Shown in pieces: positions 7,668 through 52,260 of a stretch of 64,000 nt of DNA. The notes under the pieces were generated by a model. It made no database searches. It saw only the letters and a program-made list of their open reading frames with translations, and was not told where the DNA came from. The stretch comes from Nostoc sp. DedSLP01 (lineage in GTDB: Bacteria; Cyanobacteriota; Cyanobacteriia; Cyanobacteriales; Nostocaceae), in NCBI GenBank assembly GCA_034530875.2, contig JAVRCJ020000006.1, positions 96,001 to 160,000 on the forward strand, given 5' to 3'. The position numbers and the translations under genes are program-made. The number at the start of each line of letters is the position of its first letter. The first letter of the stretch is position 1.

Positions 7668-9011
7668 TTAAATATCGATAGATATAGTTTTGGTAAAACG
7701 AAATTTTTGGTAATGAGCGTCAAGAACATATTTGTGATTGATAGCATCCTCACCAGATAGACGAGTTTCTATTGTCTTTCCTAGAATATCTTTATAGCCA
7801 TCCATTAATTCTGGGGCTATTAAAACCCTCCTCGTTTCTGGATGAATTGTTAGTAAGTATTTATCAAAAAGTCTATGTAAATCCACTCGCAGTAGTAGAC
7901 CATTTGCGATATTATGAGAATCTTGATTTCTATAAGGAATAATGTGCGCTGCTTCAATAACTTCTTCAATATTGCATCCAGTTATTATACACTTAGCTCC
8001 ATAAATTTCTATTAGTGCTTTTTTAAACTCTTCTTGCCCAGGACGAGGTGGAGGTGATTTCTGTTTTTTTATTTTTTCTAAAGTCGATAATTTTTTGACA
8101 AATTCAACATATTTATAATCTTTGGTTACATTTACATAAACCATTTTTTTATATTCTGGATCGAAACCTTCAGGAAATATAGTTTCTTCATCGTAATATG
8201 CTTCTTGTAAACTACTGGCACTATTCAAGCTAGTTTTATCAAAATTAGTTTTTCGTAAGTCTGCCTTACGCCAATTAGAACATTCTAATTTTGATTCATA
8301 TAAAACAGCATGATAAAGGTTGGCTTTTCTGAATTTTGTGTTAATTAATCTTGCTTGTTGTAGATCGGCTTCAGTCAGGTCTACACCATCTAATATTGAA
8401 TTTGTTAAATTTGCTTTATATAATTTAGCTTGTTTTAAGTTAGCTCTCTCTAAATTAACGCTTTGAAGGTTAGCTTCTGTTAAATCAACTCCGCTAAGAT
8501 TTCTATCAACTGCACCTTGATTAACAATTTCCCATATTAACTTATTTTTATCATCGAGTTTTGTATTTTCATCAATTATTACACCTTTAAAATTTGCACC
8601 TAAAACTATAGTATTAGTTAGATCGACACCACACAAGTTTGCATTTTTTAGATTTGCATTGCTTAGAATAGCTCCTTCTAAGTTTGCTCCACTTAGGATT
8701 GCTCCTTCTAGTTTAGCATTATCTAAATTTACCCCACGTAAGTTCGCATAAGCTAGATTAGTATTTTCTAGTTCTGCATTATTTAAATCTGAACCGCTAA
8801 GGTTAATTCCTGTTAGGGTTTCATTCCTAAAATCTGCTGGTTTGTTGTAATTTAAATAAGTTTTCCCTATTTTTTCAAGCATCCAATTATGCAAGTTTAA
8901 ATTACAAAAATCTCTTTCGCCCGCTTTGTAACGTATTAAAAGTTTTATATCTTCGAGTTGTTGCTGATCTTTGATCCAAGCACTACCATTATTAGCTGTA
9001 AATCTTGCCAT
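7668..9011 (-). CDS. Pentapeptide-repeat protein fused to C-terminal HNH endonuclease
   Basis: A(N/D)LxxA repeats over ~250 aa; CIITG...EAAHIIPY...NGLLLRVDLHRLFD. Confidence 0.88.
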   Translation of the reverse strand: MARFTANNGSAWIKDQQQLEDIKLLIRYKAGERDFCNLNLHNWMLEKIGKTYLNYNKPADFRNETLTGINLSGSDLNNAELENTNLAYANLRGVNLDNAKLEGAILSGANLEGAILSNANLKNANLCGVDLTNTIVLGANFKGVIIDENTKLDDKNKLIWEIVNQGAVDRNLSGVDLTEANLQSVNLERANLKQAKLYKANLTNSILDGVDLTEADLQQARLINTKFRKANLYHAVLYESKLECSNWRKADLRKTNFDKTSLNSASSLQEAYYDEETIFPEGFDPEYKKMVYVNVTKDYKYVEFVKKLSTLEKIKKQKSPPPRPGQEEFKKALIEIYGAKCIITGCNIEEVIEAAHIIPYRNQDSHNIANGLLLRVDLHRLFDKYLLTIHPETRRVLIAPELMDGYKDILGKTIETRLSGEDAINHKYVLDAHYQKFRFTKTISIDI

Positions 9012-9283
9012 GTTTTTGGAAAATCTAGATACTTAGATGTAAATAGGAGAGCATTATCGTCAATAATAGCCGTATATTATACTAGTTTTTTGCTAATATA
9101 CTGAGCGATCGTTAGATTGATATATTAAAATTTATACTTTTTGCGTTAAAAGTTAAGGTTTATACATAAGTAAGATTATGTACAAACTTTTTTGAAAAAA
9201 TTTAAATTTTCTTTGATATATTTCTGTAATCGACAATACCCGTAATGTAGATAAAATTGTAGTAGACTTCAAAATTCGATATT

Positions 9284-9403
9284 ATGGCTAGTCAAGAGCA
9301 AAATACCCATCAAGCATTCAATCAAACACAGGCTGACGGAACAAAGAAAAAGAAAAAACTACAGCCGCCTCCAGATATCAAAAAACCAAAGAGAACAGAA
9401 TAA
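9284..9403 (+). CDS. Putative 39-aa Lys/Pro-rich small protein
   Basis: Hand-translated ORF MASQEQNTHQAFNQTQADGTKKKKKLQPPPDIKKPKRTE*; below the ORF track cutoff. Confidence 0.3.
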   Translation: MASQEQNTHQAFNQTQADGTKKKKKLQPPPDIKKPKRTE

Positions 9404-9440
9404 AAATAGAATTCAGAATAATTAGAAAACCAGAATATTA

Positions 9441-9533
9441 TATAGCGATTCTTGTTTGCATTCAAACTATTGTAGGGGCGCACAGCTGTACGCCCCTACG
9501 AATAACCGTATTTTACTCAATTAAAAAGCTATA
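9441..9533. mobile_element. MITE-like element with internal GTAG REP-like hairpin
   Basis: TATAGC...GCTATA ends; hairpin gtaggggcg-N10-cgcccctac at 9472-9499. Confidence 0.6.
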
Positions 9534-9600
9534 TAGCTTGTGAATTTTCCTGAAATTATTAAGCTTGTGTCTCAAATACTCCTGAATTCTGACTTCTCAC

Positions 9601-10680
9601 TTATTTATTTTTCACTTGACTCTTTGCCTGTTCTAAAGCTATTTCTTTCATTGCTTGATATGAGTTGACATTGGAATTACCTTCAATAGCTTTAACTGCC
9701 AAATCCTGAACTTGTTTGAGGGCTGATTCAAGTTGTTTAGAAAGATTTTGAATGCGTGTCTCTTGGTTGGTAATAGTCTGTTCTAGAGATTGCAGCCTTT
9801 GTTCGTAAAAGCGCTTTTGCCCTTCTACTTCTTTAGAATATAAATCCGATTTGATTTTAGCTTGATAGTGGGCAATTCCTTTGCCTTCTTCTGTAGCTTT
9901 TTTAATAGCTGCTTCTTTTTCTTTGGGAAAAGCCTCTACTTTAGCTTTCAATTCTTCAAATTGTTTCTCTCTTTCATAAATTGCTTTTTCCCGTTCAGCC
10001 CACTGTTTTTCTGTTTTTTGGAGTAATTCCTCTAACTGTTTATATAATGCTTTCTGTCTTTGTTCGTATTCGTCATTATCTAATTGCCGTTGCAATTCTA
10101 AATTATACTTGTACTCTGTTACATCGCGTTGCCGAGTTTTATTTAGGCTTTCATTTCGTTCTTTTATCGCCCGTTGATGTTCTTCTTGTTCTTTTACCCA
10201 AGTATTTCTTTCATCTAGTACTTCTTGCAATAAAACTTCCGATCGCTGACTATATTCTTCCTGATAAGCTTTAGAATTATCTTCATAACTTTGGATCAGA
10301 GTATCTAATATACCCTCAGACATTTCTAAATTATGTAACTGTTTTAATTGTTGAATCTCTTCCTCTAAAGTTTGCCTAATTTCTTCTAATTTAGAAGCTT
10401 TAGTTGTCAGTTGTTCTGATAATTCATTAGCAGCACTCCCAAAGCCTAATTGAATTTTTGCTAAGCTTTCAATTGTATTATTCATCTTTTGCTGGACGCT
10501 AGAAAGCTGATTCATAGGTGCTTTTTGTTCTAGTTTAGGCTGTTCCTTACTTATAGACTGACTTTCTTTCACAACTTTATCAAGTTGGGATTTCAGGGCT
10601 GCTTGTTCTTTAACTAACTCCTCATACGCCTGAAGAATTTCCACTTTAGTATTCTTCTCAGTCGGTTTTTTCACCACCAC
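9601..10680 (-). CDS. Coiled-coil-rich protein, probable ZacK (Alr4505-like)
   Basis: All-helical Q/E/K-rich; paralog of neighbour (shared C-terminal QDLA motif); position next to sphR matches recalled Anabaena gene order. Confidence 0.65.
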   Translation of the reverse strand: MVVKKPTEKNTKVEILQAYEELVKEQAALKSQLDKVVKESQSISKEQPKLEQKAPMNQLSSVQQKMNNTIESLAKIQLGFGSAANELSEQLTTKASKLEEIRQTLEEEIQQLKQLHNLEMSEGILDTLIQSYEDNSKAYQEEYSQRSEVLLQEVLDERNTWVKEQEEHQRAIKERNESLNKTRQRDVTEYKYNLELQRQLDNDEYEQRQKALYKQLEELLQKTEKQWAEREKAIYEREKQFEELKAKVEAFPKEKEAAIKKATEEGKGIAHYQAKIKSDLYSKEVEGQKRFYEQRLQSLEQTITNQETRIQNLSKQLESALKQVQDLAVKAIEGNSNVNSYQAMKEIALEQAKSQVKNK

Positions 10681-10743
10681 AACAACCTCCTCTTGAGGAA
10701 TTGAAAATTTAAATTGATTGAGATGCTACCTACAGACTGATAA

Positions 10744-11727
10744 CTATTTAGGATTGGAAGTCCCAAAAGCCCTCAGAGCTAAGTCTTGTGCTTGTTTCAA
10801 TGCAGTTTGTAATTGAGCAGAAATACCTTCTATTTGCTCGTTTTGTTTCTTGATTGTGTCTTCCAGAGATTGAATCTTTAATTCATAGCTCTGTTTGTTA
10901 GATTCCCATTCTTTCTCAAATAAATCAGCCTCAATTTTGGCTTTTTGGCTGGTTTCTTTAATTGCTTCTTCTCTTGCTTTCTTAACGGCTTCTTCCAATT
11001 CGTTAGGAAAGGTAGCTACTTTTTGTTGATAATCTGCAAATAGCGGCTGATGTTGAGTAAGTACTTTTTCTCGTTCTGTCCAGTCTTTCTCTTTCTTTTG
11101 AGAAGTTTCTTGGATTTCTCTTTCTTGTTGACGCTTGATTGCTTCGTAGCTGTCTGTATTAAGTTTACGAGTTGTTTCTAATTTATATTGATATTCTTCT
11201 TCTTCTTGCTGCCGTTCTTTAACTAATAAATCATTATATGCTTTGACTTTTTCTTCATACTCTGATTGGTCTTTCTGCCATTCTTTACGCCTCAGAGCAA
11301 TTTCTTTTTCTAGAGCTTCTTTTTTACTAATACTATCTTGTTCTAGAGTTTTAAGTTTTTCTTGGTGTTCTTGACTTAAAACATCTAAAGTATCGGCAAC
11401 AACTCGAATTTGCTGAAGCTCTTGTAGGCGTTGAGTTTCAATTTCTATTGCTTGGTTGAGTTCATCTAATTTAGAGTTTTCCTGCGCTAATTTTTCAGAT
11501 AATGCATTAACAATACTACCAAACTCTAATTGTAGATCGGCTAAACCCTTAATTATACTATCAACCGTATATGTCGAAGCTGCTTGCAGAATGTTTTGAC
11601 TTTTTGCCTTTTCTGCTTCCTCTTGTTTAGTTGCGATTTTAAATTCCAGCTTTTTCCTCTGGATTAGAATTTGTTGAAATGCTTGCATTAGTTGTTGTTT
11701 GCTGTCCTTGACTCCAACTGTAGTCAT
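10744..11727 (-). CDS. Coiled-coil-rich protein, probable ZicK (Alr4504-like)
   Basis: As above; ATG 11727 preceded by ggag preferred as start. Confidence 0.65.
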   Translation of the reverse strand: MTTVGVKDSKQQLMQAFQQILIQRKKLEFKIATKQEEAEKAKSQNILQAASTYTVDSIIKGLADLQLEFGSIVNALSEKLAQENSKLDELNQAIEIETQRLQELQQIRVVADTLDVLSQEHQEKLKTLEQDSISKKEALEKEIALRRKEWQKDQSEYEEKVKAYNDLLVKERQQEEEEYQYKLETTRKLNTDSYEAIKRQQEREIQETSQKKEKDWTEREKVLTQHQPLFADYQQKVATFPNELEEAVKKAREEAIKETSQKAKIEADLFEKEWESNKQSYELKIQSLEDTIKKQNEQIEGISAQLQTALKQAQDLALRAFGTSNPK

Positions 11728-12185
11728 ATTCCAACTCCGTTCTATAGGCAATAATTTATCGGGTAGCAAGCCATACCAATGACTACCCTATGCAGACATC
11801 AGAGTAGCCTTTACATCGTATTTTTAACGCAGTGTAAACACTGAAATAATTAACAAGCGACACCAAGGTTAGTACGAGTTATCCACATTTGTGTCTTTGT
11901 GTTTTCTAAGTGTATTTTTCGCTTTTGCTTTATAGTATTTTTGTACTAATAAATATACCGAAGCCAATTTATTCTTGTCAAGACAAAAATGAAGCGATTT
12001 ATCAAAATGCTATTGGTAGCTTGCAGCCACAGCGTTTTATAATCTTTTAGATAGGCCGCTGTGGCGAATGTAACTTTTTGTAAAGGAAATCTAAAAGAAT
12101 TAACCCTAGTAGAAGCGCGGTTACACTCAAGGGAGATAATAGATAGAGATCATCCTAATTGATACAAGCACAGTCCTAGACTTTT

Positions 12186-23282: not shown

Positions 23283-26200
23283 CTAAAATAGCGATTGAGC
23301 TTCTACCTGCGTTTGAACCTCTGTTTCAACTTCAACTTGAGCCTCAACAATAGATGTATAAATTGGAATATCAGCTTGTATTGCTTCAAAACTCACAACT
23401 AAAGAGTATGGAACGCTAGCGTCTGGATCGTTGTTCCAACCTTCATGTCCAACTACTGCAATAGAAAATGCGTCTGTAAGTTCAAATGAATCTACAGCAG
23501 CCCAATCTTTTTGAAGGGTTCCTGCACTTCTGGATACATCTTTAATTATTCCGTGATTATTTTGTTTTCCTAGCATCCATTTAAAAATGCCCTCTCCCTT
23601 TTCTGCATCCTCTGGAGCATCATACTCTTTCAAAACCCTTTTCAGAAAACGTTCTGGATCTTCTCCTTTTTTACTACATTCCCAATCAAGCCAAGTTGAA
23701 AGATATTTCCGGCGATTTCTGCGGGTTCGACGTGGTTGAGCTTTGTACGATAAAGTAACTTCCACAAGAATTTTAAATGACTCTCCTGGAGAACGTAATT
23801 TTTCTGGTAGTTTTACTTGGTAAATATGAGCTTGTTTAGCTACAATACGGCGCTCTCCTGTTGTCATTAAAGTGATCCTATTAGGAGCATTACCCAAAGC
23901 ACGATCAACATCGGGAAGACCATAACCAATTTGACGAAGAACATGCAGTTTATTAACATCATCTGCCATTGTCCATTCAGGCCACCTTGCTGATTGCACT
24001 ATTAAGGCACGGTAAAGGAGACAATTTTCATTAGGTAAATCAGCAGCTATACGTGCAGCAATATGGCTGACTTTTGGTACTGCAAATGATGTTCCAACAT
24101 TATCAGAAGCAAGTGCTGGGCCACCGTTCAAAGTTGACCGTACTAATTCGGGACAAACATCTTTAGAGGTAGTAATAGTTGGAGGTGTACCTTCATCTTT
24201 TACTAAATCTCCACCATATTCAACTACTTCCGGTTTAATAGTATTCCAAATTCCTAATCCAGAACATGAAAAAGCTGAGGGTTGATCCTTTTGTGCAATG
24301 GAAGAATAAGGTGGTGAATTATAAGAATTTGAACCAATGGAACCAACTGTTAAAGCTTGAAAACTTTGTGCTGGATCAGCAATTCTACAGGAACTTTCCA
24401 ATAAATAATCTGGATATTTTCGATTTGCAGTAAGATGTTCTTGAATAGATATTCTTGTAAAGCTAATTCTATCATCTAGAGGTAAGTTTCCTGCTGAGAC
24501 AATAAAGAGAATATCCTTTTGCCATGTTAGATTATCAATAGCTGATGCCCAAGCACTCATATATCGAGTTCTACAAGGAACAGAAGCATTAATAGAATGA
24601 TTAAATAATCTTGTTCCTGCTTTTGTTTGATAAATTTCTACAATTTCATCTAGAAGATTCGGTGGAAATAGTTGCTTAGGTAATTTACAATTTTTATCTA
24701 AAACTCTTGCGTTTTGAATCCAGAAAAGAGTGTTTATACTTTCTGTACGAGGTATTGTTCTTGGATAAAGAACAGCACCAGCTACACTAGTTCCATGTCC
24801 ACCATTAACATAATCAGCAGTTTTATCTATTTCTCCAGGAACCAAAGATATAGAGTTTGCTGTGTCAATGGCTACTTTTAGTAATGGATGTCTTTCTTGA
24901 ATACCACTATCTATAATACATATTTTAGGAGCGTTTAATTTTGGAGGTTCTAGTTTAAATAGGAGGGAAAAAACATCATAAGAATTTTCTTTTTGAATAA
25001 GTTCTACAAATTCATTTGGTTCACTAACATCAAAAATATACGGAAAATAGAAAAGTAAATCTTTTAATCCTTTACCGCAAATTTGAATCCTACATAAGAA
25101 ACAGTCTGGTATATGAGCATATTTATTAATATATCCATCAGTATTTTTTATAACTATTCCCTCATACTCTTTATTTTGAACAAAATCTATAAATTGCTCC
25201 TCAATTTCATATTTACAATTATCCCATTGTTCATAGGATAAATTACGTTGATTAATCCAGTTATTAACTCTTTGAATAAACTGCAAGTTATTTTCATTAT
25301 CTTCTTGTACTGGGTAGTCAGAAAATTGATATTTATTTCCTATACAGGATAATCCTACATCAACAGTATATATCTGAGCATCTTTAACTTGATTCCAATG
25401 CTCTATTAATTCTTGAGAAAGAATGTATTCAGTTTTTTTAGTTCCATCGAAAATTTCCCAAATATTAGAAATTTTTTTATTCACAAAATTTATTGTGAAA
25501 AGTTTTACTAGCTTTTTCTGAAATTCACTAAATTCTTGTTCGTTAACAATCTCAGCAATATAATCTTCTTTTAGTTGACAAATTATTTGATCATTTTTTA
25601 TTGAGGAACTGTCTGAATTATTATCTACATTTTCATTATGTAAACTAATATCAAAAATATATGGAAAGTTAAAAACTAAATCTTTTAATCCTTGCCCTTT
25701 TATCTGAATACGACAAGAAAAACTGTCTGGTAGTTGGGCTAAATTAGGAATATCTTCGTCAGCCTTTTTTAAATAAATTCCTTTATATTCTTGAATAAAA
25801 GCTTTAAATTGTTCTTCTCTTTGTGACTTAATTTCGTCGCGTTCCTGCTCTATTAAATGACGTTTTTTCATCCAAGTATTGATTCTTTGAATAAATTGTG
25901 TATCACTTTCATCAGGCTTACGTTTTGGATAATTGGGAAGTAAAGGTTTACTTCCTATACAAGATATTCCTACATCAACAGTATATATATGGTCATCTTT
26001 AATTTGATACCAATGTTCTATTAAATTTTGATCAAGAATATATTGAAGTTTTCTACTACTATCTAAAATTTCCCATATTTCTGCAATTTTATTACCACCA
26101 AATTCTTGATTAATAAATTTTTCTATCTTTTTTTGCAACTCATTTAGTTCTATATCAAAGGAAATACCAAGAATACATCCATCTTCCAAATCAGCAATTA

Positions 26201-26519
26201 CTTCGATGCCATAAATTTGTAGTCGGTCTACATCAAAAGAAGAAGGATCTATCTTTAAAATAAGTGCAATAGGATAGGGAAGTTTATCTTTTTTCTTTTC
26301 TTCACGTTTTTTTTGAGAATCTTGCCAATCAAATATCAAAGTTTTTATTGAAACCTTTAGTTTATTTCCATGTTCCTGGCGATTATTCAAATTAGCAACT
26401 GTTATTGGATGTCTTCTTAACCCACCTAGTGGCGATGCAGCACGTCCTTCTGTTGTCAGCCTAAGCCGGATATGCGGAAATCCCTGAGAACTTTCAACCA
26501 TTTTTGCTCTAGACACCAA
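23283..26519 (-). CDS. S8 subtilase-family serine protease, IetS-like
   Basis: Triad IIDSG / GHGTSVAG / GTSFAVP; SAGN oxyanion motif; KPEVVEYGG; no signal peptide. Confidence 0.9.
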   Translation of the reverse strand: MVSRAKMVESSQGFPHIRLRLTTEGRAASPLGGLRRHPITVANLNNRQEHGNKLKVSIKTLIFDWQDSQKKREEKKKDKLPYPIALILKIDPSSFDVDRLQIYGIEVIADLEDGCILGISFDIELNELQKKIEKFINQEFGGNKIAEIWEILDSSRKLQYILDQNLIEHWYQIKDDHIYTVDVGISCIGSKPLLPNYPKRKPDESDTQFIQRINTWMKKRHLIEQERDEIKSQREEQFKAFIQEYKGIYLKKADEDIPNLAQLPDSFSCRIQIKGQGLKDLVFNFPYIFDISLHNENVDNNSDSSSIKNDQIICQLKEDYIAEIVNEQEFSEFQKKLVKLFTINFVNKKISNIWEIFDGTKKTEYILSQELIEHWNQVKDAQIYTVDVGLSCIGNKYQFSDYPVQEDNENNLQFIQRVNNWINQRNLSYEQWDNCKYEIEEQFIDFVQNKEYEGIVIKNTDGYINKYAHIPDCFLCRIQICGKGLKDLLFYFPYIFDVSEPNEFVELIQKENSYDVFSLLFKLEPPKLNAPKICIIDSGIQERHPLLKVAIDTANSISLVPGEIDKTADYVNGGHGTSVAGAVLYPRTIPRTESINTLFWIQNARVLDKNCKLPKQLFPPNLLDEIVEIYQTKAGTRLFNHSINASVPCRTRYMSAWASAIDNLTWQKDILFIVSAGNLPLDDRISFTRISIQEHLTANRKYPDYLLESSCRIADPAQSFQALTVGSIGSNSYNSPPYSSIAQKDQPSAFSCSGLGIWNTIKPEVVEYGGDLVKDEGTPPTITTSKDVCPELVRSTLNGGPALASDNVGTSFAVPKVSHIAARIAADLPNENCLLYRALIVQSARWPEWTMADDVNKLHVLRQIGYGLPDVDRALGNAPNRITLMTTGERRIVAKQAHIYQVKLPEKLRSPGESFKILVEVTLSYKAQPRRTRRNRRKYLSTWLDWECSKKGEDPERFLKRVLKEYDAPEDAEKGEGIFKWMLGKQNNHGIIKDVSRSAGTLQKDWAAVDSFELTDAFSIAVVGHEGWNNDPDASVPYSLVVSFEAIQADIPIYTSIVEAQVEVETEVQTQVEAQSLF

Positions 26520-26528
26520 AAATTAATA

Positions 26529-27551
26529 CTAGGAAACTTGGATTTCTGCGATTGCTTCTTCTAAGTGTTCTTGAATCACTAGCTCCTCTCGCTCAAGGAT
26601 TGCTCGTTTAGCAGCATCTTGTGCAACCCTCACGGCTTGAGCCGCAGAAAAATCTTTCATCTGCTCAATGATCCTTGACCAATTGATAGATCCTATTTCA
26701 ATTGCAGATAGTGTTTCCTTTAGTATAAATTCTAGCTCCTGTTCTCCTGGTTTGGGTACTGCAATTAAGTCATCAAATCTTCTCCAAAGAGCAGTATCTA
26801 GAGATTTATTCAGATTAGTTGCTGCGACTAAAAGTCCAGAAGACGGTTGATACTCATCCAAAATTTGAAGAAATGTATTTACTACTCGCTTAATTTCTCC
26901 TACTTCTTGATAATCTTCTCTGGACTTAGCAATCGAGTCACATTCATCCAGAAACAACAAACATGGATTTTTGGAAGCATCCTCAAATACAAGTCTCAAA
27001 TTGGTTGCAGTTTCACCTAAAAAAGACGATACCATTGCATCAAATCGAACTTTCAGTAGTGGTAAACCAGTATTCCAAGCTAGACGCTCTGCTCCTAGCG
27101 TTTTTCCACAACCAGGTGGCCCATATAAAAGAATTTTTTGTCTGTAACGCAGTCCATGATGAGCCAACCTGTCTCTTGCTGCATACTCGCGTTCAATTCG
27201 GCAAAAACGTTTCTCAATATTTTTAGGCAACACCATGTGATGCCGTAGTTTCTCCCTCGGTATGATAGTTACTAGAGGAAGATTAAATCGCTTACTGGTT
27301 GGTAATTCAGTTAAGGTCTCTAAGTTTTCTGGTACTGTTCGCGTAGCGTCTCGAAGAGAAGAAGCAGGTTTGCTGATGTTGGTAGACTTCTCTTTGTAGC
27401 TTTTTTTAGTGATATTCTCTAACTGATCAGCTAAGAGAGTATGTCCCTTACTGCGTTCTTCCTCAATTACTAAATATGTCAGCTTATCAATCGCCTCTTG
27501 ATCTGAACTAGCGATCGCTCTAAAAAATCTCTTGAGAAGCTCTGCTTTCAT
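26529..27551 (-). CDS. AAA+ ATPase, IetA-like
   Basis: Walker A GPPGCGKT, Walker B LFLDECD, ATN, LDTALWRRFD; 9 bp upstream of the S8 ORF. Confidence 0.92.
   Translation of the reverse strand: MKAELLKRFFRAIASSDQEAIDKLTYLVIEEERSKGHTLLADQLENITKKSYKEKSTNISKPASSLRDATRTVPENLETLTELPTSKRFNLPLVTIIPREKLRHHMVLPKNIEKRFCRIEREYAARDRLAHHGLRYRQKILLYGPPGCGKTLGAERLAWNTGLPLLKVRFDAMVSSFLGETATNLRLVFEDASKNPCLLFLDECDSIAKSREDYQEVGEIKRVVNTFLQILDEYQPSSGLLVAATNLNKSLDTALWRRFDDLIAVPKPGEQELEFILKETLSAIEIGSINWSRIIEQMKDFSAAQAVRVAQDAAKRAILEREELVIQEHLEEAIAEIQVS
27337..27360. repeat. 24-nt small dispersed repeat inserted in frame in the AAA ATPase
   Basis: GC-rich gttcgcgtagcgtctcgaagagaa encoding SLRDATRT in an AT-rich gene. 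Confidence 0.6.
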
Positions 27552-27710
27552 ACTGCCTCTCAGTATAAATAGTAACTTTTGAACAATTTAGTACAATAGT
27601 ACTAGATAAATATAGTGTATCGTAAATTGTAACGCGATTACCCTGTGCTTAATCATTATATTAAATTTTGTAAAACAAAAAACATTCTTCTGGTCAGAAT
27701 CTTAGTATAT

Positions 27711-27986
27711 CTAGACATAGCCTGTTTCCTTGAGGTCTATATCGTCTTCCCCTTCAATTAATAGCAAAGTCATCAGATCTCCTTCGACAAATCCTGTTAA
27801 TTTAAAATCGGGCATAGCTTTTAATTCCTCCATCGAAACTTTCTCAGAATAATATTTAAATATCATTTTAATTGCTTTATTTTTATCTAGATAATATTGA
27901 TAACTACTATCTTTCCGCATCAAATTTTCTACTATTTTTGTAATCCGGGCTAGAAGTTCTTGTTTGTCCCTCGAAATTTCCTGCAT
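27711..27986 (-). CDS. Hypothetical protein (91 aa)
   Basis: ORF with good RBS (ggagga); no recognised motif. Confidence 0.6.
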   Translation of the reverse strand: MQEISRDKQELLARITKIVENLMRKDSSYQYYLDKNKAIKMIFKYYSEKVSMEELKAMPDFKLTGFVEGDLMTLLLIEGEDDIDLKETGYV

Positions 27987-28140
27987 AACTTCCTCCCAAT
28001 GATTTACTAAATTACTTCAATTATAAACAATCATCCTCAGCGAACCTCTGCGTTGACCTCAGCGCTCCTCTGCGTTTAAAAAATAAAAAAAGGGCGGGCA
28101 AAATACCCACCCCAAAGAATAAGAGAATATTCTGTTGCTA

Positions 28141-45690: not shown

Positions 45691-46449
45691 TTAATCCAAC
45701 ATTTCTGGGTCAATTCCTAAAGCATTTAGTTGTTCAACAGAAAGATTACGCAATTTCTCTACAATTCTTTCTCGCTTTTGTCGTTCAACTTCAGCGCGTT
45801 CTTCACCTGTTAGCAGTAAATTTCCTTGTGCATCCCACCACCGCAACCAAGGTAACTCTGCATTCTGATATAAACCCTGCCAAATTCCCAACTCTACCCC
45901 TAAAGGAGCAATTGGGTAATGTCCTCTTTCATTGGGTTTCATTAGTTGATAAGTAAAATCGGTGAGATGATACACCTCAACCTGAGCTTTTGCTACTTCA
46001 TAAATTCCATAATAAGGCACTCGAATTGCCTGCTCGTAAACCCAAAACTTGCCAACATTTCCACTTTCTCCTTGAGATGGCGGTGTTTTATCTCGTTCTT
46101 CTGAACCATCTCCAGAGACAAATTCCAACACAATTAAAGGTGCAACATACTCCTTCCACAGGACATAAGAACGCCGCATTTTACCATCGAGAGTAGGCGG
46201 TACATTGGGTACATAAAACCAATCTGGTGCCTCTGCGCCCTTTTCAGGAGGATCTGTTAATCGCCAGTAAATACCAGAATCTTGTCCAATACAATATTGT
46301 CCGTCAGGATGACGTTGTTCCAGAACAGGTTTAATTGAATCTGTAATTAAGATACTTTGGGGATGCTCCTGAAGATTTTTCACAAATTTACCATCTGAAT
46401 CTGGTAACTGAGTGTGGTCAGGTAAAGTTAATGCCGATAAGGAAGTCAT
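45691..46449 (-). CDS. Uma2 family endonuclease (close paralog of 22495-23205)
   Basis: LPDHTQLPDSDG, APDWFYVP, PLIVLEFVS. Confidence 0.92.
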   Translation of the reverse strand: MTSLSALTLPDHTQLPDSDGKFVKNLQEHPQSILITDSIKPVLEQRHPDGQYCIGQDSGIYWRLTDPPEKGAEAPDWFYVPNVPPTLDGKMRRSYVLWKEYVAPLIVLEFVSGDGSEERDKTPPSQGESGNVGKFWVYEQAIRVPYYGIYEVAKAQVEVYHLTDFTYQLMKPNERGHYPIAPLGVELGIWQGLYQNAELPWLRWWDAQGNLLLTGEERAEVERQKRERIVEKLRNLSVEQLNALGIDPEMLD

Positions 46450-46628: not shown

Positions 46629-47324
46629 TTAATAGATGGTAAGAAAAGATTTAAGCGTATTGAGTAATGGTTGTATAAATATATCCACTATTGGCTTTGT
46701 AAAACTAAGCAGAACCCCAATAGCAATCGCAAAAACAAAAGCCTGTTTAACAGAATAATTTTCTATTTTTTTCTCCATATCATCCAAACGTTTTACTAAA
46801 TAAGGAAGAGAAGAAACTAAATCAGGACTATTAATTAAGTCGGTTGGAATTGAATCATAACCTATCTTGTTTCGTGGATTTTCGTCTGCTTTATCCAAGT
46901 CTGTATACCATATAGCAAAAACCCTCTCACCTCTTCCTACATGAAAGTTAAGAGGCCCAGCATTATAAACAGCAAAAATTAGTTTTCCACTATAGCCAGG
47001 ATCGACATGAAAACCTGAAACATTGATCAGTCCACTTGATTTAAATTTAAATTTAATCGAAATAAATGCAAGTGCATTGTTAGGAACTTTGATTATTTCA
47101 GAAGTCATCAGAAATGCAAACTGTCCTGGAGGTATAGCAACAGTTTCTTTCTCTTTTAAAAGAATTTTTTTCCGATCTTTCAAAGGTGTATCAGGAAGGG
47201 CTGAAATATAAATTTCTTCCCCTAAACACAATTCATACGATGCAGACTGAATTTGATCGGCATTAAATGGTTCAATTAAATTAGGAAGATGAGATCTCAA
47301 AGTTTGTGATGACCAAAAACTCAT
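46629..47324 (-). CDS. dCTP deaminase/dUTPase-fold protein with C-terminal TM helix
   Basis: QSASYELCLG, IPPGQF, VDPGYSG, GERV; hydrophobic tail AFVFAIAIGVLLSF. Confidence 0.8.
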   Translation of the reverse strand: MSFWSSQTLRSHLPNLIEPFNADQIQSASYELCLGEEIYISALPDTPLKDRKKILLKEKETVAIPPGQFAFLMTSEIIKVPNNALAFISIKFKFKSSGLINVSGFHVDPGYSGKLIFAVYNAGPLNFHVGRGERVFAIWYTDLDKADENPRNKIGYDSIPTDLINSPDLVSSLPYLVKRLDDMEKKIENYSVKQAFVFAIAIGVLLSFTKPIVDIFIQPLLNTLKSFLTIY

Positions 47325-47854
47325 TTGTTTATCCGCAAGATATCGTTTAGTGAATGTTTTATCTCCACAGAGGCTAAACGTCGTCTAGACTCTTCTAAAA
47401 TAGAAATATTTCGTGAGTGTGCTTCACGAAGTAGAAGGTAAAAAAACTTTCGTATATTTCTATTCCAGGTAGCTCGAATCGGGTAATCTTCTTGGTGATC
47501 TGTTGCTTCACAAGCCTTAGCGAGTTCAGCAAGGAGCAGAATATATTCATCAATGAAATTACCGTTAATAGAATTAATTTTATCAATCAGCAGCTCTTTT
47601 GCTAAATAAATTCCTAATAAGTTACTTGCAGAAACAATCATTATAAATGAATCAATAAATGCCCTATTGTTTTCTGCTGCTGATATAGGTATAGATGAAA
47701 GAATTCCGAGATATTTAACGAGATGCAAGGCAATATGATTCATTCGCCTAGAAATATCAAGTACAACTATTTCATGATGGTAAATTTCATCATGCTTCAT
47801 TTGTAGACGTTGATAAGCATTTAATTCTTCAGTTGAAATTAGTTTGTTTAACAT
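47321..47854 (-). CDS. Hypothetical all-alpha protein, possibly degenerate MazG-like NTP pyrophosphohydrolase fold
   Basis: LNAYQ start and LHLVKYLG / AFID / AELAKACE spacing resemble MazG-type helices; ATGA overlap with the Dcd-like gene. Confidence 0.5.
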   Translation of the reverse strand: MLNKLISTEELNAYQRLQMKHDEIYHHEIVVLDISRRMNHIALHLVKYLGILSSIPISAAENNRAFIDSFIMIVSASNLLGIYLAKELLIDKINSINGNFIDEYILLLAELAKACEATDHQEDYPIRATWNRNIRKFFYLLLREAHSRNISILEESRRRLASVEIKHSLNDILRINK

Positions 47855-48096
47855 GACGTTTACACTGATTTAATTCTTAAAATTTAGTCAGCCTATCTCC
47901 CTTAATTTAGGTATTTAGAGAGTTAGAATAACAATTTTGTATTTGACACCCTCATATTAGTGACTAAACAGACTGTAATCTTTACAACACCTTTAAATGA
48001 GTGATTAAACTGATAGCTTTTTTATAATACATCAATAAGTATAAAGAGGTATAAAGTTACCGCAAGTCATCTGTAATCTAATTAACAGTAGCTCAA

Positions 48097-48192
48097 TATA
48101 GCATTTCCTGTTATGGTGAAGTACAAGGTAGAAGCGAATAGCTTTGCGCCTCTACAAATTTCTGTACCTCAATTTGATTGGGAACCGTTATA
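48097..48192. mobile_element. MITE-like element with GTAG hairpin (same architecture as 9441-9533)
   Basis: TATAGC...GTTATA ends; gtagaagcg...cgcctctac hairpin. Confidence 0.55.
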
Positions 48193-48319
48193 ATAGCATT
48201 TTTTCTTTTATTATCCTTAAATATTACTTGAAAAATGTTATTAGTTTACAGTGATTATTCTACCATTCAACAAGCACAGAATTTGATTTTGTTATATTAT
48301 TTGAAATCTCGTATTTTGT

Positions 48320-49453
48320 CTATACTATAGAATTTAAGTTTAAAGATAATTCCTGAAAATTACTATTATTCAGTTGTTGCAGATTATGAATACTGAAATT
48401 TGGCAATTTATACTCTAAGCCTTGTTTTACTTTGCTGTTAATTCGCCATTTAGGTGGATAAAAATAATCAATGGGTTGAGGCGTTGAAATAAATTTAGAC
48501 TTTATCTTTTTACGATTACTTTTCAAATCAGGAAAAGCTGCTCGGCAGTATTTATCAGTTTCACAAAATAAATTTTGACAGTCTATAGCCTGTAGCGGAC
48601 GACCCCAAAGTGATTGAAAATTTAATCCCAAACGCTGAAATTCTTTCTCTTGATTTTCAGTCATCCAATGAATAACATCTGTATATGTTTTACCTTCTGT
48701 ATCAATAAAACATTTGTTAATACCACGTTCGGCACCTGGGCCTGCTATAGTAAAACTATTCTCGTCAAAGTTGATAATTTCACTATAGTTAATATCTGTG
48801 GCTAATTGGTAAGCCATAAACTTACCCAATAAGGGATATTCTTGAATTATTTGAAAAACAGCTTCAAAACTTTTGGCTTTGACTATGTTATTTACTACCC
48901 TATCTTGGACAACCATTTTATCAATTAATGCTAAATGATTTTGGTGTTTTTTATCATAACCGAACTCTTTGCTGGCACAAGACATATAGGCACTAGTATA
49001 AATAACATACCCAAGATTCATCGCTTCTTGCAAGATGTTTGAATATACATTAAAATCAAAGTTAGATAATGTAATATAGTCGCCTATTTGTTTCTCTAAA
49101 TATTCCCAGGTTTCTATCTTATTAAAGATTTTAAATAGTAAAATTCTGAAGATTACTTCTTCTTCATTTTTGCTTCTATTATCATCATAAATTACGTTTT
49201 TAATCAGATATTGTGAAACGCGATCGCTTGCTCGATATGCGTTACAAAACTTATAAGTATTAATAATGGGATCGCTTGTCCAAGGCGGTGGTAGATTGTT
49301 AATTTTGTTGAAAAATACTTCTTGGCGCATAGCAGCAAATCGCCAATAGGTATCAAAAATTTCTTGTCTTACTCGCATATACTGTTCTCTTGGCTTGCGC
49401 TCATCAGTTTTGCCTCTAGAAATCTGATTATACGACAACTGTCGTATAATCAT
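48320..49453 (-). CDS. 5-hmdU DNA kinase-like / aGPT-Pplase1-family helical protein
   Basis: RQ...PPPWTSDPII..YKFCNAYRASDRVSQ, FKIFNKIETW, FMAYQLATD, GPGA..G, QNLFCETDKY. Confidence 0.75.
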   Translation of the reverse strand: MIIRQLSYNQISRGKTDERKPREQYMRVRQEIFDTYWRFAAMRQEVFFNKINNLPPPWTSDPIINTYKFCNAYRASDRVSQYLIKNVIYDDNRSKNEEEVIFRILLFKIFNKIETWEYLEKQIGDYITLSNFDFNVYSNILQEAMNLGYVIYTSAYMSCASKEFGYDKKHQNHLALIDKMVVQDRVVNNIVKAKSFEAVFQIIQEYPLLGKFMAYQLATDINYSEIINFDENSFTIAGPGAERGINKCFIDTEGKTYTDVIHWMTENQEKEFQRLGLNFQSLWGRPLQAIDCQNLFCETDKYCRAAFPDLKSNRKKIKSKFISTPQPIDYFYPPKWRINSKVKQGLEYKLPNFSIHNLQQLNNSNFQELSLNLNSIV

Positions 49454-49529: not shown

Positions 49530-50198
49530 TTATGAAATACTAGGATCGTCTGCTTTTTTTATTTCTTCCAAGATTTTTTGAACTTGATTAACTTTTTCAT
49601 TTCTATTCTGTTCTTTAAAAATATTTAAAGCTTTCTCTAGAGAAGAGATTGCCTCATCTTGTTTATTTGTTTGCCACATTGCCAGAGCAAAGTTAGTTAG
49701 TGCTTCAGCATAATTCGGATTAATTTCTAAAGCTTTCTGGTATTGAGAAATAGCGTCTTGCCAGCGATTGTCGCTAGCATAGACCATACCAATAGCATTG
49801 TAGGCTAAAGCATATTTTGGCTGGAGGCGGATCGCTTCTTTGTAGGCGCTAATTGCTTCTTCTGATTTCTTTTGCCGAAAAAGTACGTTTCCTAGTTGAA
49901 AGTGTCCAAAGGCATCTTTAGGAAATTGTTTAATGAATTTGCGTAAATTTTCCTCTGCACCCTTCAAGTCTCCTTGATTGTACAAAGCATTGGCTTGTTG
50001 GAGAATTTGCGATCGCTCTGATGGCCCTTGGTCTGAAAATTGCGCTAGTTTCTGTATTTGTCTTGTGGGATACTGTTGAGGCGAATGCAAAGAAACTGCT
50101 AATACTGATGGTGATAGACCAATTGCAGTGATGATACTCAGTGTTATGCAGCTCAAAGGTTGAACAAATGCTGATTTCAGTTTGTTGTTCGCTTTCAT
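49530..50198 (-). CDS. Exported tetratricopeptide repeat protein
   Basis: Signal peptide + TPR units (EAISAYKEAIRLQPKYALAYN). Confidence 0.9.
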   Translation of the reverse strand: MKANNKLKSAFVQPLSCITLSIITAIGLSPSVLAVSLHSPQQYPTRQIQKLAQFSDQGPSERSQILQQANALYNQGDLKGAEENLRKFIKQFPKDAFGHFQLGNVLFRQKKSEEAISAYKEAIRLQPKYALAYNAIGMVYASDNRWQDAISQYQKALEINPNYAEALTNFALAMWQTNKQDEAISSLEKALNIFKEQNRNEKVNQVQKILEEIKKADDPSIS

Positions 50199-50286
50199 CG
50201 CCCTGAATGCCTCAATAGTGTTCTAATACTTATGATAAATTGCAGGTGCGTTACCAGGTAACGCCCCACAATTAATCTAGAAATTG

Positions 50287-52260
50287 CTACGCGCCTTCGC
50301 GCAATTTATCCAACACGCCTCTATCTTCTAAGGTAGAAGTATCGCCAGATACTTCTTCTCCCGCAGCGAGATTTCGCAATAATCGCCGCATAATCTTACC
50401 CGATCGCGTTTTCGGCAAAGCATCCGTAAAGCGAATTTCTCCAGGACGGGCGATCGCACCAATTTCTTTGACAACGTGTTGCTTGAGTTCTTTACTCAAT
50501 TCCTCACTTCCCTGGTAAGTGCCTTCTAATGTCACAAAAGCAACTACCTCTTCTCCTTTGAGTTCATCCGGCTTACCCACTACCGCTGCTTCTGCAACTG
50601 CTGGATGGGAAACTAAGGCTGATTCAACTTCCATTGTACCGAGTCGGTGTCCTGATACATTCAATACGTCATCAACGCGACCCATTACCCAGAAGTAACC
50701 ATCTTCATCGCGTCTAGCGCCATCACCAGCAAAATAAGTATAGTTCCCATCCTTGGGGGGGATGTGTTCCCAATAGGTGCGGCGGAAGCGTTCCGGATCG
50801 CCGTAGACTGTCCGCATCATTCCCGGCCAAGGATGGCGTACTGCTAAATAACCGCCTGCATTGTTGGGTACGGCATTTCCTTCTAAATCTACGATGTCTG
50901 CAAGAATTCCGGGGAAGGGAAGAGTTGCAGAACCGGGTTTAGTGGGAATTGCCCCTGGTAGGGGTGTAATCATGATACCGCCAGTTTCCGTTTGCCACCA
51001 AGTATCAACGATGGGACAGCGATCGCCACCAATCACGCGATGATACCACATCCAAGCTTCGGGGTTAATCGGTTCGCCGACGGTTCCCAGCAATCGCAAC
51101 GAAGATAAATTTCGCGCCTTGGGATGTTGTTCGCCCATCTTAATAAATGCCCGAATTGCCGTAGGTGCGGTATAAAAAATATTGACGCCGTATTTTTCAA
51201 TCACATCCCAGAAACAACCGGGATTAGAAGCACGGGGCGCACCTTCATACATGATGGTTGTTGCGCCGTTGGAAAGCGGGCCGTAGACAATGTAGCTGTG
51301 TCCAGTAATCCAACCTACATCGGCAGTACACCAGTATACATCTGTATCTTGCAGATCGAAAATCCACTTGGTGGTGATATGGGTATACAGATTATAGCCA
51401 GCAGTTGTATGCACCACACCTTTGGGTTTGCCCGTACTGCCGGAAGTGTAGAGGATAAACAGCATATCTTCGCTGTCCATCGGTTCGGCGGGACAATCTG
51501 CCGATGCATTTTTTTGCAGTTCGTGCCACCAATGGTCGCGTCCGCCTGACTGCATATAAGTTTCTTGTCCGGTGCGCTTGACAACAAGGACATTTTCTAC
51601 ATTGGGAACAGCACCGTTAGCTAAGGCTTTATCTACCTGTTCCTTGAGAGGAACGATCGCATCTTTGCGCCAGCCACCATCAGCAGTAATTACCAACTTA
51701 GCTTTAGCATCAATTAAGCGATCGCGTAAAGCTTCGGCACTAAAACCACCAAATACAACGCTGTGGGGTGCGCCAATTCTGGCACAAGCTAACATGGCGA
51801 TGGCAGCTTCGGGAATCATTGGCATATAAATACCAACGCGATCGCCTTTTTGTACGCCTAGTTGCTTCAACACATTGGCAAACTGACAAACTTCTCGGTG
51901 CAATTGGGCGTAGGTAAGGGTACGCGAGTCTCCTGGTTCGCCTTCCCATATCAGTGCAGCTTTATTTTTGCGCCAAGTAGTGAGGTGTCTGTCAAGACAG
52001 TTGTAAGAAATATTCATCTTACCGCCAACAAACCACTTAGCAAAAGGCGGTTGCCAATCTAGGACTGTATCCCATTTTTGGAACCAAGCTAATTCTGTAG
52101 CTGCCAAATCTGCCCAAAATTGCTGCGGATCGGCTTTAGCTTTGTCAGAAAGGCGCTGATAGTCTTCTAAGCTTTTGATATGGGCGTTTTGTGAAAATTC
52201 CGGGCTAGGATGGAAAAGGCGATTCTCTTGTAGGATTGATTCTATGGTTGGTTGAGACAT
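50287..52260 (-). CDS. acs: Acetate--CoA ligase
   Basis: [32 protein letters not shown]. Confidence 0.98.

Follow-up and report, generated by a model that had tools for sequence, protein, structure and literature searches.

A 64,000-nt stretch of the Nostoc sp. DedSLP01 genome (GCA_034530875.2, contig JAVRCJ020000006.1, positions 96,001-160,000), called the window here and providing the coordinates used below, carries three adjacent genes named A, B, and C. B and C are read, tentatively and at a little under an even chance, as a mobile two-gene anti-phage module that senses a non-canonical nucleotide and is docked next to A, a gene of the family represented in the validated defence system DS-4. 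The three genes are as follows.

48320..49453, minus strand: gene A, 377 aa, aGPT-Pplase1 (PF18723), helix-hairpin-helix (HhH) glycosylase-like fold
47321..47854, minus strand: gene B, 177 aa, dimeric-dUTPase/all-alpha nucleoside triphosphate (NTP)-pyrophosphatase fold
46629..47324, minus strand: gene C, 231 aa, Dcd/trimeric-dUTPase fold with a membrane helix

The original prediction, an earlier reading of the DNA letters, had placed three co-oriented AT-rich genes between a TPR/acs block and a Uma2 gene, with the last two coupled by an ATGA overlap. Both observations were confirmed: the three minus-strand open reading frames have a GC content of 0.32-0.33 against 0.409 for the genome, and the B stop and C start overlap as ATGA, by which C is translationally coupled to B. 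All three genes are intact, and four comparisons show purifying selection on each of them, with ratios of nonsynonymous to synonymous substitution (dN/dS) of 0.07-0.08 for A, 0.17-0.22 for B, and 0.20-0.40 for C. The synonymous distance (dS) was lower for B and C than for A and acs in 3/3 comparisons, which fits a module that moved more recently.

Pairing was counted after own-genome and duplicate loci had been dropped, with a partner required within 6 kb; loci carry L numbers. C followed B in 15 of the 20 B loci and in 6/6 metagenome loci, and A was present in 9 of the 20. Among 43 C loci, 15 were with B, 24 with a MazG domain, and 1 with both, giving 38 with B or MazG; C thus stands nearly always beside a partner of the all-alpha NTP-pyrophosphatase fold, rarely beside both kinds. 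The order A-B-C was found in the window and in L117, L035, L033, and L084 (A ends 15 bp before B in L084), the order B-C-A on plasmids L090 and L095, with the same cassette in L094, and B-C without A in L089, L091, L118 (beside DUF1643), and L096 (beside a uracil-DNA glycosylase [UDG]). The three-gene co-occurrence that had been predicted therefore recurs, in cyanobacteria and on proteobacterial plasmids, although it is not fixed. A fixed three-gene operon was ruled out, since B-C occurs without A, and A is found mostly with DUF1643 and MazG/MazG_C. Among 72,556 plasmids, B was found in 10, C in 9, B and C in 6, A in 21, A and B in 5, and all three in 3, namely as B-C-A in Rhizobium and Acinetobacter (A being in two pieces in Acinetobacter) and within an XRE/ImmA cassette in Sinorhizobium. 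On two haloarchaeal plasmids, B has A as a neighbour and C is absent. One of them, from Natronomonas (L092:4117-6545), has consecutive genes for a zinc-ribbon protein, B, a SLATT-like DUF4231 protein, and a TIR protein, transcribed divergently from a PF18723-like gene, which places B with different putative effectors.

Neighbourhoods of A were taken from its 51 closest loci (L001-L051), drawn from the best 80 of 549. A was followed by DUF1643 in 44/51 and MazG/MazG_C in 43/51 of these loci; C was present in 17/51, full-length B in 2/51, and acs near A in 27/51, and thymidylate synthase (TS), ACPS, and an XRE/ImmA switch in 0/51. The conserved three-gene unit A-DUF1643-MazG/MazG_C is the commonest Nostocales form of the slot between the TPR and Uma2 genes, and its MazG partner keeps the canonical acids E34, E62, and D65 in 51/51. 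Of the 18 loci that lack full B and match the B/C junction, 17 retain 55-76 bp of B before the start of C, which suggests that C entered these loci as B-C and that the lineages later lost either B or DUF1643-MazG. In nine Nostoc MazG_C genes, the frame is fused after residue 293 to the last codons of B, with the coupling to C kept. These MazG_C-B 3' chimeras, formed by a shared deletion, are in L006, L007, L008, L010, L012, L015, L016, L020, and L028.

The 465-bp gap between A and B contains two elements.

48097..48193, no strand assigned: MITE-like dispersed repeat of ~96 bp, imperfect terminal inverted repeats read by eye
47855..48096, minus strand: upstream region of B, also conserved at loci that lack A

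By blastn, the B-proximal section of the gap is conserved in L033, L035, and L117 and also in L118, which lacks A (69% over 173 nt). It is probably, judging from this conservation of sequence, the promoter region of B-C itself; a sigma-70 promoter scan gave 16 sites against 15.8 expected, which is at chance level. The miniature inverted-repeat transposable element (MITE) in a gap of ~465 bp, which had been noted earlier, was confirmed. Its core (48107-48189) is missing from the orthologous L117 gap and has 12 further genome matches (8 at E ≤ 0.001 in a separate search), so the repeat is regarded as a recent passenger insertion. Folding of the ~96-bp repeat was no better than that of shuffled sequences (z 0.10). 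The mobile unit is B-C, with its own upstream region and a patchy distribution: full B was present in 5/389 family genomes (PF18723 in 45/251), a B search of a phylum sample of 401 genomes gave its own gene and one marginal match, and B was absent from another five genomes.

No Pfam, NCBIfam, or PADLOC match was obtained for B, which matched only phrog_19333 (function unknown), and a PDB sequence search with its profile returned nothing meaningful. Its family has 541 relatives among 50%-identity representatives. The B model, with a predicted local distance difference test (pLDDT) score of 87.6, was closest to the staphylococcal phage Dut 5myd (VIA Z 12.7, root-mean-square deviation [rmsd] 2.8 Å, 142 aa). 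Dimeric dUTPases were the only chains with Z ≥ 8 among 48,161 (12.7, 9.6, and 9.0 for 5myd, 1w2y, and 2yay, from staphylococcal phage, C. jejuni, and L. major), followed by MazG 1vmg at 6.4; helical models can reach such Z values by chance, and the top four rows for B belong to one superfamily. Foldseek paired the B model with a dimeric dUTPase at probability 0.99, template modeling score (TM) 0.59, and E 0.31, with no match at E ≤ 0.001, and the best named ESM Atlas clusters were dUTPase_2 (feature match 0.92) and MazG-like. The label "MazG-like" given in the original prediction holds for the all-alpha NTP-pyrophosphatase fold; B as a plain MazG was rejected, as no Pfam MazG match was found and the larger dimeric dUTPases are closer (Z 12.7 versus 6.4).

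Dimeric dUTPases bind Mg through an acidic set (Glu, Glu, Glu, Asp), of which B keeps only D68. In a sequence-based alignment with phiNM1 Dut (PF08761), Q18, D22, D68, S75, and N78 of B are kept, including the Q-x-x-x-D pattern with its Gln and Asp that bind the base, and H44 (81/81), K47 (81/81), and a variable non-acidic residue 65 replace three Dut glutamates, which leaves His, Lys, and a hydrophobic residue at three acidic positions. B differs from dimeric dUTPases further in having no PF08761 match, only 8-9% identity, and an extra conserved CE-x-x-DH-x-E motif of its own. Invariant in the family alignment are Q18, D22, H44, K47, Y48, D119, and E122, and several histidines are near-invariant. 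As far as its sequence tells, B is a rewired or dead dUTPase fold. The phiDI Dut site is described in PMC5608427.

Distant B homologues were matched in seven phage records, with T4-like Acinetobacter phages Ac42, 133, and Acj61 and also Pseudomonas phage DT01 as carriers. In Ac42, the gene (L101:3989-4579) lies between dexA and a topoisomerase gene, and its product keeps 15 of the 16 conserved residues that were checked. This type of phage homologue is a candidate anti-defence sponge or nucleotide enzyme. A viral-contig scan with the B alignment gave 12 pattern matches, none of which was confirmed.

C matched PF22769 (Pfam, E 8e-18), and the Dcd/dUTPase fold, at residues ~11-150, was also obtained from NCBIfam and PDB matches. 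C scored below the cut-off of the dCTP deaminase family TIGR02274 (74.6 versus 92.8 bits). The catalytic residues of the E. coli dCTP deaminase are S111, R115, and E138. In 139 homologues of C, the Ser column holds F or A (S in 1), the Arg column S, A, or F, and the Glu column A or S (E in 0); all three are retained in the genome's own housekeeping Dcd. These columns rule out an active dCTP deaminase; the Dcd fold and the membrane helix of the predicted "Dcd-fold-TM" protein stand, and the name "dCTP deaminase" does not. With this superfamily (PF22769, TIGR02274) C shares the fold and the motif-3 D-P-G, and it departs from it also in a new invariant NVSG[FL]H and in the coiled-coil-like stretch and membrane helix at its end. 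Within the pocket NVSG[FL]HV[DE]PG, N101, S103, G104, H106, P109, and G110 are invariant in the 139 homologues, as is N121. The hallmarks of trimeric dUTPases are a motif-3 Asp, a motif-2 Ser, and a C-terminal motif-5 arm. The first is kept in C (D108, 133/139), the motif-2 Ser is lost, the C-terminus is a hydrophobic helix, and PF00692 gave E 0.23. A hydrophobic segment (19-residue mean of at least 1.8) follows residue 150 in 130/139 homologues; in C itself, a membrane helix is predicted at ~195-213, preceded by a charged coiled-coil-like stretch. B and C have unrelated dUTP-binding folds with conserved pockets, and the canonical catalytic residues are replaced in both. A complex prediction with two copies of B and three of C(1-190) scored 0.00, which bears neither way on binding. 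A single open frame spans B and C in L085:151-1452 (record P0329, 414 aa); it comes from one short contig, may reflect a sequencing error, and was left out of the evidence.

It is proposed, again with slightly less than even confidence, that C acts at the membrane as an effector gated by a uracil-type triphosphate raised by infection and that B, or MazG elsewhere, binds or removes this nucleotide and sets the threshold, with phage B acting as a sponge or eraser. Phage, cassette, or host enzymes would cause dUTP, 5-hm-dUTP, or a derivative to accumulate upon infection; this uracil-type triphosphate would bind the trimeric head of C, after which nucleotide-bound C would damage or depolarise the membrane and the infection would be aborted. 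B would bind the same nucleotide and set the threshold as a buffer, a slow eraser, or a co-sensor, a job that MazG/MazG_C may take in other loci, and T4-like phages would keep a B homologue as a sponge or eraser. The sensing role could equally fall to B.

A precedent is Kongming, in which the signal is dITP, a nucleotide whose precursor is depleted by phages (10.1101/2024.12.20.629578), and in which the sensor KomB has a pyrophosphatase fold with a Glu-to-His replacement and does not hydrolyse (PMC13454610). The likeness to the present locus is by analogy, in that a base-modified dNTP would be read by an NTP-pyrophosphatase-fold protein with a catalytic Glu changed to His. Kongming differs in its purine signal, its HAM1/ITPase-fold KomB, its Sir2 NADase KomC, and its adenosine deaminase KomA; none of the KomA deaminase, HAM1-fold KomB, or Sir2 KomC domains was found in A, B, or C, which have dUTPase-type folds and a putative membrane-helix effector instead. 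The stronger claim is rather doubtful: that B-C would be a pyrimidine counterpart of Kongming in bacteria and archaea, with a uracil-type triphosphate as the alarm, a dead trimeric dUTPase fold with a membrane helix that reads it and kills, a dead dimeric fold that gates, and a T4-like phage sponge.

Several observations weigh against an anti-phage module of this kind. PADLOC-DB 2.0.0 (2023) gave no profile match for A, B, or C and matched 0/81 B-family members, and no defence island was seen in the window, where the flanks hold only acs, TPR, Uma2, and an efflux operon. The B/Dut residue equivalences are sequence-based and depend on a weak HHalign match (E 0.033) and a MAFFT register. The single predicted membrane helix of C could be a plain anchor. 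C is absent from 5/20 B loci, and both B and a MazG N-domain are missing from 5/43 C loci, 3 of which also lack MazG_C; because the loci were retrieved with A, B, or C as queries, and many of them are related, the counts are not independent. Against lambda, DS-4 had a weak effect, with a -log efficiency of plating of 0.93 and small plaques (PMC13092281). From the host defence module that had been postulated for all three genes, the link to anti-phage defence and non-canonical pyrimidine nucleotides is retained, with the membrane Dcd-fold protein as the likely effector, and A as a kinase and the fixed three-gene system are not.

The 377-aa A protein had been expected to hit the HMUDK/aGPT-Pplase1 profile, and it matched PF18723 (aGPT-Pplase1/HMUDK_hel; Pfam) at E 1e-109 and 366.6 bits against a cut-off of 25, over positions 2-280 of 281. 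Its proposed role as a 5-hydroxymethyldeoxyuridine (5-hmdU) DNA kinase was ruled out. No Walker A motif (P-loop) was found, although it was present in a phage-kinase control, and A matches PF18723 only; an M6-like phage has as its kinase a distinct P-loop protein of another family (PF18748), and the PF18723 protein next to it is aGPT-Pplase1. The label "5-hmdU-kinase-like" is an artefact of the Pfam name, and A is a helical non-kinase domain. The aGPT-Pplase families reportedly stem from Iyer et al. 2013. The A model (pLDDT 92.9) was nearest to the queuine-salvage N-glycosylase Qng1 (DUF2419; VIA Z 10.4, rmsd 5.4, 235 aa), followed by gp46, a transferase from phage (Z 10.0, rmsd 4.2, 226 aa), and by a series of HhH DNA glycosylases (Z 8.8-5). 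A PDB sequence search with the A profile returned nothing meaningful, and Foldseek gave no match at E ≤ 0.001. A did not match PF18724 (amino-acid:DNA transferase), so its likeness to that family is one of fold only. Cys297 and Glu298 are invariant in 41/41 aligned relatives; the C-terminal tail is non-conserved and shorter than in most Nostocales relatives, and the core is intact. By eye, QNLFC297 aligns with ETVLC of Pplase2, which carries the catalytic Cys; HHalign did not detect the A-Pplase2 similarity (probability 0.1 against one Pplase2 sequence). For gp46, Cys247 has been proposed to attack pyrimidine C6 (PMC11472151). A is 25% identical to phage Pplase1 (E 1e-21), and PF18723-type phage records number 504. 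A is proposed to be a separate, often co-located base-recognising enzyme with a Cys nucleophile and a glycosylase fold, which would act on or generate modified uracil.

Three other explanations of the locus were weighed. It is unlikely that B and C are active, re-specified pyrophosphatases that destroy modified phage dNTPs (hm-dUTP, dUTP, hm-dCTP) directly, while A (or UDG or DUF1643) acts against incoming DNA by attacking or marking its modified bases and the C helix only localises the protein. C does keep its motif-3 Asp (133/139) and an invariant pocket, D68 of B together with the invariant D119, E122, and histidines could make up a new metal-binding site, the canonical acids of MazG, the alternative partner, are intact in 51/51, and B-C adjoins A, DUF1643, or UDG in different loci. 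Direct destruction does not explain, however, why one substrate should need two enzymes or why the membrane anchor is conserved; C has its motif-2 Ser replaced and B three of its acidic ligands, and B is carried by phages themselves. Unlikely, too, is that the genes are chance neighbours at an insertion hotspot, with A an orphan of an A-DUF1643-MazG/MazG_C operon and B-C an independent unit outside defence that serves in nucleotide sanitation, stress signalling, or as a toxin-antitoxin-like addiction module. The separate upstream region of B-C and its lower dS than that of A would fit such a history, as would the wide variability of the TPR-Uma2 slot (which can be empty), the repeated deletions in the Nostoc MazG_C-B chimeras, and the failure to find the usual partners of A in the genome with search controls that were silent. 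Against it stand the strong purifying selection on A (0.07-0.08), the independent co-occurrence of A and B in Rhizobium, Sinorhizobium, Acinetobacter, and two haloarchaeal plasmids, and the gap of only 15 bp from the A stop to B in L084.

The third explanation, in which A modifies thymine or hm-uracil in host DNA, with the precursor pool under the control of B and C, is highly improbable. A resembles phage Pplase1 at the level given above and shares the gp46 fold, and its QNLFC aligns by eye with ETVLC of Pplase2. The original prediction had noted the lack of a thymidylate synthase homolog in the window, and this extends to the whole genome (99.8% complete) for the ThyA type, which was not found by a search whose control was detected in 10/14. 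No ThyA/dUMP hydroxymethylase-type gene was found, and ThyX is present. The PF18748 kinase profile was not found in the genome, with the search control also silent, and PF18722 and PF07799, the usual partners of A, were likewise not found with silent controls; tblastn with real members of the PF18748, PF18722, and PF07799 families and with Pplase2 gave no genome match. With no ThyA-type gene, kinase, or Pplase2 match, host thymidine hypermodification would be without its known machinery. In the M6 reconstitution, moreover, the clade-1 gp55 was dispensable for the 315-u product (PMC8989533). A shares the HhH-like fold and the invariant Cys with phage aGPT-Pplase1 (M6 gp55-like, PF18723) and the transferases gp46 and gp51 (PF18724), and it differs from these systems in that no kinase, hydroxymethylase, or Pplase2 partner was found in the Nostoc genome. 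The ThyX (Thy1) match falls into two parts with ~1.45 kb between them, both inside a single 716-aa open frame (G000:C32:38895-40904; L105, L106), as an intein insertion would give.

The reading of B-C as an anti-phage module beside A was compared with defence systems reported by DefensePredictor (PMC13092281). The validated system DS-4 (working id NTTI), anti-phage in E. coli, comprises TS, a dNMP kinase, a PF18723 protein, a TIR protein, and a fifth gene. It resembles the locus in its PF18723 protein and nucleotide-modification theme; of the DS-4 genes, only PF18723 is present in the locus, and neither B nor C appears among the genes listed for DS-4. The same source predicts aGPT-Pplase, MazG, MazG-C, and dUTPase domains to be defensive, without validation, as well as one C-family protein (log-odds 5.05); in the portions of its tables that were covered, no B member was found with the B-family motifs. 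XRE/ImmA-regulated cassettes with TS-like, ACPS, MazG/MazG_C, UDG, and PF18723 genes are also predicted defensive (text on Fig. 6F, PMC13092281). A, B, and C occur in such cassettes as interchangeable parts, and the Nostocales locus is a stripped-down version with no XRE/ImmA switch, TS, or ACPS (0/51). The place of A is taken by a divergent UDG-family gene in L096, L098, L099, and L100, which are XRE/ImmA/C1-peptidase cassettes that also contain MazG/MazG_C or B and C. DUF1643 (L001:9309-9809) carries the motifs NPS...VNLF...AWG...HP, which presumably recall the UDG fold; HHalign with shallow alignments, a PDB sequence search, and the Atlas gave no support for this.

The cassette had been called undescribed. 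PADLOC returned no existing name for A, B, or C, and the term holds for B and, as far as the searches reach, for the B-C pair, of which no description was found in the literature searched, most subscription journals being outside it; it does not hold for the A family, present in DS-4, or for C, given the C-family protein predicted defensive. The new elements are the B-C pair and the B family, within a known kind of cassette. B-C is a minimal two-gene unit within widespread nucleotide-modification cassettes, of which DS-4 is the one validated member. If C were a receptor-effector for dUTP or hm-dUTP, immune signalling by base-modified nucleotides would extend from purines to pyrimidines, bacteria would have a way to detect modified-genome phages, and a function would be available for the B family, which includes >500 distant proteins without a Pfam entry and occurs also in T4-like phages. 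Two widely applied misleading annotations are corrected, namely "nucleotide kinase domain" for A and "dCTP deaminase" for C.

A-B-C is flanked by acs and TPR upstream and by Uma2 and an efflux operon downstream, of which the following features delimit the slot.

49530..52260, minus strand: TPR and acs, flanking core genes, mark the insertion site, outside the module
45691..46449, minus strand: Uma2 flanking gene (PF05685, Pfam), outside the module, kept at the empty slot in L011

The content of the TPR-Uma2 slot is highly variable among loci, including an empty one (L011). Between acs and A in L006, L009, L012, L028, and L035, the TPR gene is bordered by short duplicates of parts of the acs 3' end, which suggests repeated insertion at the acs end. 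Two further stretches of low GC content (0.27-0.37) are in the window, at 8001-12000 and 25001-28000.

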